The notes beneath the pieces were generated by a model that worked only from the letters and a program-made list of their open reading frames with translations, was not told the DNA's origin and searched no databases. A DNA stretch of 64,000 bases. Source: Escherichia coli. Lineage in GTDB: Bacteria; Pseudomonadota; Gammaproteobacteria; Enterobacterales; Enterobacteriaceae. How positions within the stretch are numbered: position 1 is the stretch's first letter; the number at the start of each line of letters is the position of its first letter. This document shows, in pieces, positions 5,450 to 5,931 of this stretch. A program made the translations under genes and the position numbers. The stretch is taken from assembly GCF_044324875.1 (NCBI RefSeq), contig NZ_CP172185.1; one strand, given 5' to 3'.

Positions 5450-5931
5450 GTAAAACCTCATCGTTTTGTTATATCCGCAGGAAGCGCGGCCATCATCCCG
5501 CCAGAGGCTGAAGATGTTAGTTACGACCGGGTAACCGAAAAAAAACCGGCACGCCCCGAACGTTGCCATGAAAGTTTCGTGCTAATTCGGCTTCCGTACC
5601 GGTTAACCCGATTCATCTAACAAATGAATGAATCGGCAATTTGCATTCCGTCGACTTATGATTTGCGACGGCAGAAAGATAACTTGTCATACAACTTTAA
5701 AAGGTGAGAGCCATCACAAATGTGCGAATATTTGTAGGGACATTACCTGACGGCTACGAGGCCAGTACTGGCGCGGCCTGCAGCGAGATTTACCACTTTG
5801 AGAGTAATTTTTTTAACTACGTTTATTGATCTAACTCACGAAAATATCTTCGGACTCTGGAAATTGGTGTGATAACTTTGTCAGCATCGCACCATAAGCA
5901 AGCTAGCTCACTCGTTGAGAGGAAGACGAAA
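5450..5931. promoter_or_regulatory. Divergent exuT / uxaCA control region with candidate ExuR operator half-palindromes
   Basis: 482-bp AT-rich spacer between divergent starts; near-palindromes AACTTGTCATACAACTT (~5683-5699) and AAATTGGTGTGATAACTTTGTCA (~5861-5883). Confidence 0.45.

Follow-up and report, generated by a model that had tools for sequence, protein, structure and literature searches.

The closest described relatives of the control region analysed here are the ExuR/UxuR operators of gntP-uxuAB and uxuR, where an 18-bp motif of the type AAATTGGT-N2-ACCAATTT stands in an Ashwell-pathway promoter region with a GntR/FCD gene adjacent to it, and AAATTGGTATACCAATTT, the UxuR/ExuR operator, has served as a functional operator in a published biosensor (PMC8092373). 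According to the literature, ExuR and UxuR repress both exuT and uxaCA and may work as heterodimers, the two operons are derepressed in uxuR mutants and on glucuronate, and the operators have been mapped genetically; the 1980s papers describe the exu operators of exuT and uxaC as separate, and as defined both genetically and physically. Further reports ascribe to ExuT and ExuR roles in gut colonisation and in the control of virulence by dietary galacturonate.

The divergent exuT-uxaC locus of Escherichia coli shares with the gntP-uxuAB and uxuR operators the type of motif, the pathway context and the adjacent GntR/FCD gene, although its two sites, each with 13 of 18 consensus bases, are more degenerate than the uxu and uid sites, which match at 13-14 of 18 and keep both the TGGT and ACCA cores intact. 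The site next to exuT and a further site upstream of exuR are also unlike the uxu and uid sites in having a TTGTyATAC core in place of TTGGT..ACCAA, which may reflect a preference for ExuR over UxuR. In its predicted layout the exuT promoter resembles class II CRP promoters whose core also holds a repressor site, such as gntT (GntR plus CRP), with the CRP centre 41.5 bp from a start that is here a prediction, and as in promoters of the gntT type a site for a sugar-acid repressor of the GntR family would lie between the CRP site and the -10 hexamer. The region as a whole is similar to the FNR/CRP co-regulated divergent promoters placed in category 3 by Myers 2013, since it has an FNR ChIP peak and an FNR motif apart from the CRP site. 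The exuT leader, in turn, is similar to structured 5' leaders and attenuators in its five locally stable hairpins with compensatory changes and in the stem followed by U8 in E. coli, and unlike the known ones in that it belongs to no Rfam family, its U-tract is not conserved and its whole-leader folding energy is no better than that of shuffles; it differs from CsrA-bound leaders as well, in that exuT has no CsrA CLIP peak and shows only a drop in translation efficiency in a csrA mutant.

The region is the classical divergent exu control region, already known from the genetics of the 1980s, from comparative genomics and from RegulonDB, so that finding its operators adds nothing to the known exu regulon and serves as a positive control for a reading made from sequence alone. 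What might be new is only the fixed 180-bp spacing between the operators and the covarying exuT leader. We hold with good confidence to an overall model of a divergent exu control region with two ExuR/UxuR operators, activation by CRP and FNR and a long exuT leader. The sequence matches, their conservation and their spacing are observed and the CRP and FNR evidence is published, while the repressor occupancy, both transcription starts and any role of the leader are predicted.

Results

The window, by which we mean the whole stretch of 64,000 nucleotides (64 kb) that was analysed, comes from the E. coli chromosome, and its gap between exuT and uxaC (5450-5931) is identical (100%) to that of E. 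coli ST2747. In RefSeq, the genes annotated on an E. coli record of 100% identity agree with the original prediction that the divergent exuT and uxaC are separated by exactly 482 bp, and this annotation, that of K-12 MG1655 and Pfam together place exuR just downstream of exuT, as had also been predicted (Table 1). At an identity of at least 95% the intergenic sequence is found in 5,419 of 5,426 complete E. coli genomes, with a median of one copy and a maximum of two. Its K-12 counterpart (NC_000913.3 3244742-3245223) differs from the window by 5 SNPs, and four of the five differences fall within 6 bp (5753, 5755, 5756 and 5758); this cluster at 5753-5758 falls in the least conserved part of the stretch that runs from the CRP site to the GCCAG block.

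Table 1. Genes, putative regulatory sites and leader hairpins of the exu locus, in coordinates of the window.
Feature	Position	Strand	Sequence	Remarks
exuR	3245-4021	-		GntR/FadR-type repressor gene, 258 aa; RefSeq, Pfam GntR PF00392 and FCD PF07729
Third operator-like site	4051-4068		TATTTGTTATACCACTTT	Upstream of exuR, in the 129 bp between exuT and exuR; 4 mismatches, the window's best consensus match
exuT	4151-5449	-		Hexuronate MFS transporter, 432 aa; RefSeq, Pfam
exuT start codon	ATG 5449	-		GAGG Shine-Dalgarno at ~5456-5459
exuT 5' leader (predicted)	5450-5669	-		~220 nt; inverted repeats and covariation; start predicted
P4	5489-5485/5479-5475	-		Leader hairpin
P5	about 5516-5491	-		Leader hairpin
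P3	5604-5595/5553-5544 and 5590-5585/5561-5556	-		Leader hairpin, then U-tract (U8) 5543-5536
P2	5636-5627/5617-5608	-		Leader hairpin
P1	5671-5666/5653-5648	-		Leader hairpin
Candidate exuT -10 hexamer	5676-5681	-	TATCTT	Next to operator 1; predicted +1 near G5669
Operator 1 (putative exuT operator; element 1)	5681-5698		AACTTGTCATACAACTTT	13/18 consensus bases
CRP site	5700-5721		AAAGGTGAGAGCCATCACAAAT	Core 5703-5718, centre 5710.5; adjoins element 1
Conserved block	5761-5776		GCCAGnnnTGGCGCGG	Invariant alignment columns (12 Enterobacteriaceae); between the CRP and FNR sites
FNR (CRP/FNR-family) site	5821-5844		GTTTATTGATCTAACTCACGAAAA	Core TTGAT-N4-CTCAC 5826-5839, centre 5832.5
Operator 2 (putative uxaCA operator; core of element 2)	5861-5878		AAATTGGTGTGATAACTT	13/18 consensus bases, perfect left half-site
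CRP-like TGTGA-N6-TGTCA	5868-5883		TGTGATAACTTTGTCA	Overlaps operator 2; right half not conserved
uxaC	5932-7344	+		Glucuronate isomerase; RefSeq, Pfam
uxaA	7359-8846	+		Altronate dehydratase; uxaC-uxaA operon 5932-8846; RefSeq, Pfam

Two near-palindromic elements resembling ExuR/UxuR operator half-sites had been proposed in this gap. Element 2 (AAATTGGTGTGATAACTTTGTCA) lies exactly where it had been placed, at 5861-5883, and element 1 (AACTTGTCATACAACTT) is present at 5681-5697, which is 2 nt to the left of the 5683-5699 given for it. When palindromy was judged by a base-by-base reading of the sequence, the description held for element 1, a 17-mer in which 6 of 8 arm positions are complementary, and proved overstated for element 2, the 18-mer of which is self-complementary at 4 of 9 positions. 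Site 1 is best read as an odd palindrome of 17 bp with its half-sites 1 bp closer together than in the consensus. In element 2 the left half is the perfect consensus half-site AAATTGGT, while the right half is poor and its final bases, GTCA, are not conserved.

We scanned the 64-kb window with the 18-mer AAATTGGTATACCAATTT and counted mismatches, and found five or fewer at only three positions, 4051 (4), 5681 (5) and 5861 (5), all of which fall in the exu locus and two of them in the 482-bp gap, where chance would supply about 0.02 such sites per 482 bp. The likeness to ExuR/UxuR operators is thereby upheld, in that both elements and the site upstream of exuR are the three best matches to AAATTGGTATACCAATTT in the window. 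The comparison with the uxuAB operator gave a similar result, since a scan of K-12 with AAATTGGTATACCAATTT finds similar sites upstream of uxuA (two), and it also yields sites upstream of uxuR, uxaB (two), uidA, uidR and exuR. A matrix trained on the 8 other K-12 regulon sites, with the two gap elements left out, scores the pair at 10.3 and 10.0 bits and places them 18th and 21st among 64,000, so that taken as motif matches alone they are weak. Among the window's 18-mers element 1 is moreover joint-closest to the site upstream of exuR, to which it is identical at 14 of 18 positions including the common TTGTyATAC core. Because each element carries five mismatches and its matrix rank is modest, the case for operators rests on conservation and context and not on motif score. 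In the same matrix scan the site at 9470-9487 (AAAGGGGTTAAACAATTA), in the 3' end of ygjV, has the best or second-best score, above both elements; it was rejected as an operator and taken for a chance match, the same position being without a site in all 15 relatives scanned, even E. albertii.

For a view of conservation we scanned one genome per species with UxaC and obtained 16 Enterobacterales loci with the same arrangement of exuR downstream of exuT and divergent from uxaC, with exuT-uxaC gaps of 375-860 bp. Both elements are present in 16 of the 16 genomes and are invariant or nearly so, lying 55-71 bp (element 2) and 235-251 bp (element 1) upstream of the uxaC ATG; in the window itself operator 2 occupies the positions 54-71 bp upstream. 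Both 18-mers are kept almost base for base across genera despite diverged flanking intergenic DNA, and in an alignment of 12 Enterobacteriaceae, with a mean column identity of 70%, the blocks GATAACTTGTCATACA.CTT and AATTGGTGTGATAACTT are invariant, as is the core of operator 2. A metagenome scan added 120 further loci, 89 of them with complete gaps (455-492 bp), and here too both elements are essentially invariant, in about 100 distinct sequences. In some relatives the orthologous sites stand nearer to the consensus, as in Acerihabitans (AAATTGGTATAACACCTT, 16.3 bits), and the Pantoea site AACTTGTTATACAACTTT is likewise shifted towards it. Taken together, the resemblance to the consensus, the hexuronate-operon context, the adjacent GntR+FCD gene and the phylogenetic footprint suggest that both elements are very probably ExuR/UxuR repressor sites. 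We assign them to the two repressors jointly, the predicted occupant being ExuR, UxuR or the ExuR-UxuR heterodimer alike.

Element 2 might alternatively be mainly a CRP site (TGTGATAACTTTGTCA), conserved for the activation of uxaCA by CRP and not as an ExuR operator, a reading encouraged by the 8 of 10 matches in its CRP core (16 such sites occur in the 64 kb) and by the description of both uxaC and exuT as CRP-activated (Myers 2013). However, the conserved block AAATTGGTGTGATAACTTT passes the left edge of the CRP core by 7 nt and ends before the right half-site, the left 8 nt of the element are the perfect ExuR/UxuR half-site, and the right CRP half is without one of its two key C bases and differs among genera, where it reads TGTCAG, TGCAGC, TGACAC or TATAGC. 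It was on this unconserved right half-site that the CRP reading of element 2 was rejected, and we consider it very unlikely that CRP explains the conservation of what we prefer to read as an ExuR/UxuR operator.

A CRP and an FNR site are also found in the gap, of which the original prediction made no mention. Next to element 1 is a CRP site with a core that matches TGTGA-N6-TCACA at 9 of 10 positions (three such sites in the 64 kb) and with invariant half-sites, and the reverse complement of AAAGGTGAGAGCCATCACAAAT appears in the PredCRP supplement as the RegulonDB CRP site for exuT. In the PredCRP study exuT rose 9.2-fold with cAMP by qPCR, and its authors considered that exuT is perhaps under a mechanism more complex than class I or II. 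The core of the FNR site matches TTGAT-N4-ATCAA at 8 of 10 positions, and GTTTATTGATCTAACTCACGAAAA is the reverse complement of the FNR motif given for the uxaC/exuT ChIP-chip target (Grainger 2007). An FNR ChIP-seq peak has been reported in the exuT-uxaC gap by Myers 2013, who classed both operons as candidates for activation by FNR together with CRP at distinct sites; in glucose medium the exuT/uxaC locus showed no difference in expression that depended on FNR. Of 101 distinct sequences, 77 retain the FNR half-sites, TTGAT...CTCAC, and differ from one another here only in the 4 nt at the centre. These sites are consistent with a control region that would integrate inputs from ExuR/UxuR, CRP and FNR, the occupancy by repressor being a prediction. 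The conserved block between the CRP and FNR sites includes the palindrome CCAGTACTGG in E. coli, and a sigma-54 reading of TGGCGCGG...TGC (5768-5780) was rejected on inspection of the sequence, its spacing being wrong.

The third operator-like site is kept in the exuT-exuR spacer of 15 of the 16 species, and probably mediates autoregulation of exuR. Overlapping the exuT stop codon and the same spacer, at 4094-4197 on the minus strand, are two Rfam matches that stay below threshold, one to RNAI (29.5 bits where the gathering score is 47; E=0.014) and one to csRNA, which probably reflect either a chance hairpin-rich stretch or the exuT terminator.

The starts of exuT and uxaC have no entry in the tables of Kim 2012 and Ettwiller 2016, a search by promoter name was also empty, and Grainger 2007 gives the start at this target as unknown. 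A simple sigma-70 and terminator scan recovered neither promoter and no terminators, and its one hit on the plus strand is at chance level. In relatives the candidate exuT -10 hexamer reads TATCTT, TATCGT, TATTGT or TAATGT, so that T1, A2 and T6 stay the same and only the middle changes, as would be expected of a -10 hexamer. With a start near G5669, which is about 3245004 in NC_000913.3, the CRP centre would lie at -41.5, in class II geometry, and the arrangement fits a class II CRP-dependent exuT promoter with its predicted start near 5669.

In the mechanism that we propose, GntR/FadR-type ExuR and UxuR would act through two separate 18-bp operators, one for each promoter and 180 bp apart. 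Operator 1 would lie between the CRP site and the -10 hexamer and span roughly -12 to -29, so that repressor bound to it would keep RNA polymerase out. Operator 2 stands next to the FNR/CRP-family site. The candidate uxaC starts are at about 5857, 5872-5874 and 5905-5907, and whichever of them is taken the operator would lie within about -46 to +22, be it across the -10 and +1, a little downstream of +1 or across the -35. A hexuronate-derived inducer would free the repressor from its operators, activation would come from CRP-cAMP and from FNR, which binds in vivo, and the third site upstream of exuR would provide autoregulation. With the exuT promoter placed some 230 bp from the start codon, the gap would be long by virtue of a leader of about 220 nt with conserved hairpins.

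The inverted repeats of this predicted leader recur in relatives as hairpins despite changes in sequence. Because RNAalifold on 39 sequences gave a poor consensus (MAFFT misaligns the variable loops), we measured covariation by projecting the five helices of the E. coli minimum free energy (MFE) fold onto an alignment of 39 non-redundant leaders and counting pairs. In the projected helices 86.6% of the cells are paired, a share that falls to 27-41% with slid partners; 32 cells are changed on both sides as against 11±3.5 in shuffles, with none of 500 shuffles as high. Each hairpin segment also folds better than its own shuffles (mean z -1.6 to -3.2), and the sense strand of exuT has 88 G·U cells to 30 A·C cells, one invariant pair supplying 36 of the G·U cells. 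The MFE of the whole leader does not differ significantly from shuffles (z -0.87 in sense, -1.45 in antisense), and for this reason the case for leader structure rests on the covariation and the per-hairpin z-scores only. No Rfam covariance model matches within 5450-5931 at E-values up to 1.

In E. coli the long P3 stem and U8 resemble a terminator, a place where the terminator scan made no call. P3 with U8 is present in E. coli, E. albertii and Citrobacter, a CCGGGA...UCCCGG hairpin being found elsewhere instead, and the U-tract is missing in most genera. The Term-seq tables of Adams 2021 hold only ORF-internal 3' ends for exuT and none in the leader, in media in which exuT is repressed. An invariant hairpin, GUACGGAUACC, carries GGA in its loop in the manner of a CsrA site, and ACGGAAUG is also conserved. 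Potts et al. report no CsrA CLIP-seq peak on exuT, and a change in its translation efficiency in the csrA mutant (log2 -0.61) that was scored as significant, and we take control of the leader by CsrA as a possible lead and not as a finding. At the exuT start itself (5437-5460, minus strand) a conserved hairpin UUUUAC-AUGC-GUAAAA is possible with the AUG in its loop; its conservation says little, because the 3' arm is coding.

The length of the gap could also be explained by an unannotated gene, one for a 472-aa ExuT that begins at ATG 5569, for a leader peptide or for a small RNA of its own. An in-frame ORF does run from 5569, an older annotation gave b3093 as 1419 nt, and in E. coli P3 followed by a run of 8 U is terminator-like and could release an RNA of ~130 nt. 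Yet ATG 5569 is replaced by AAG, TTG, GTG or CTA in relatives and indels break the frame, the short exuT start is used by RefSeq and in K. pneumoniae, and the 472-aa model and the leader peptide were rejected because neither start nor frame is conserved. A hidden RNA is opposed by the missing Rfam match and by the loss of the U-tract in most genera, and the Term-seq tables, although from media that repress exuT, place no 3' end in the leader. A hidden gene of any of these kinds is thus highly improbable, and we continue to read the sequence upstream of exuT as the probable untranslated leader of its mRNA.

Discussion

That the conservation of the two elements has nothing to do with ExuR and UxuR, and comes instead, for instance, from a role in a core promoter or from some other factor, with their likeness to the consensus a coincidence, is hardly credible: the leave-out scores are modest, the chance site at 9470 scores higher and element 1 overlaps the candidate -10, but two of the only three sites with five or fewer mismatches in 64 kb lie in the gap and the third upstream of exuR, element 1 shares 14 of 18 bases with the conserved exuR site, the orthologous sites in Acerihabitans (AAATTGGTATAACACCTT) and Pantoea (AACTTGTTATACAACTTT) move towards the consensus, and genetics places the exu operators here.

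Reading both elements as ExuR/UxuR operators, we observe that the distance between them (centres 5689.5 and 5869.5) is held far more closely than their distances to the genes. Among 107 distinct sequences 88 have a distance of 180 bp and 103 one of 179-181 bp; the outliers are 167, 169, 178 and 184 bp, of which 169 and 167 bp are off by about one helical turn. Across the same 107 sequences site 2 stands anywhere from 52 to 75 bp away from the uxaC ATG, and the exuT leader is between 158 and 264 nt long. The fixed spacing suggests a constraint of phasing or looping. At present we can only offer as a tentative proposal, one we think doubtful as a whole, that the two operators, 180 bp or ~17 helical turns apart, act together through a loop in the DNA, with exuT and uxaCA then repressed as a single unit, and that, separately from this, the exuT leader is an undescribed Enterobacteriaceae-wide structured regulatory RNA, acting as an attenuator, as a target of CsrA or another protein, or as an element of mRNA stability. 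If this were true, the leader RNA would add post-initiation control to hexuronate uptake.

The longest of the gaps, that of 860 bp in Rahnella inusitata, has two copies of the operator core TTGTCATAC and, besides these, the strong site AAAGTGGTGTAACAACTT, which points to a duplication or an insertion within its control region.
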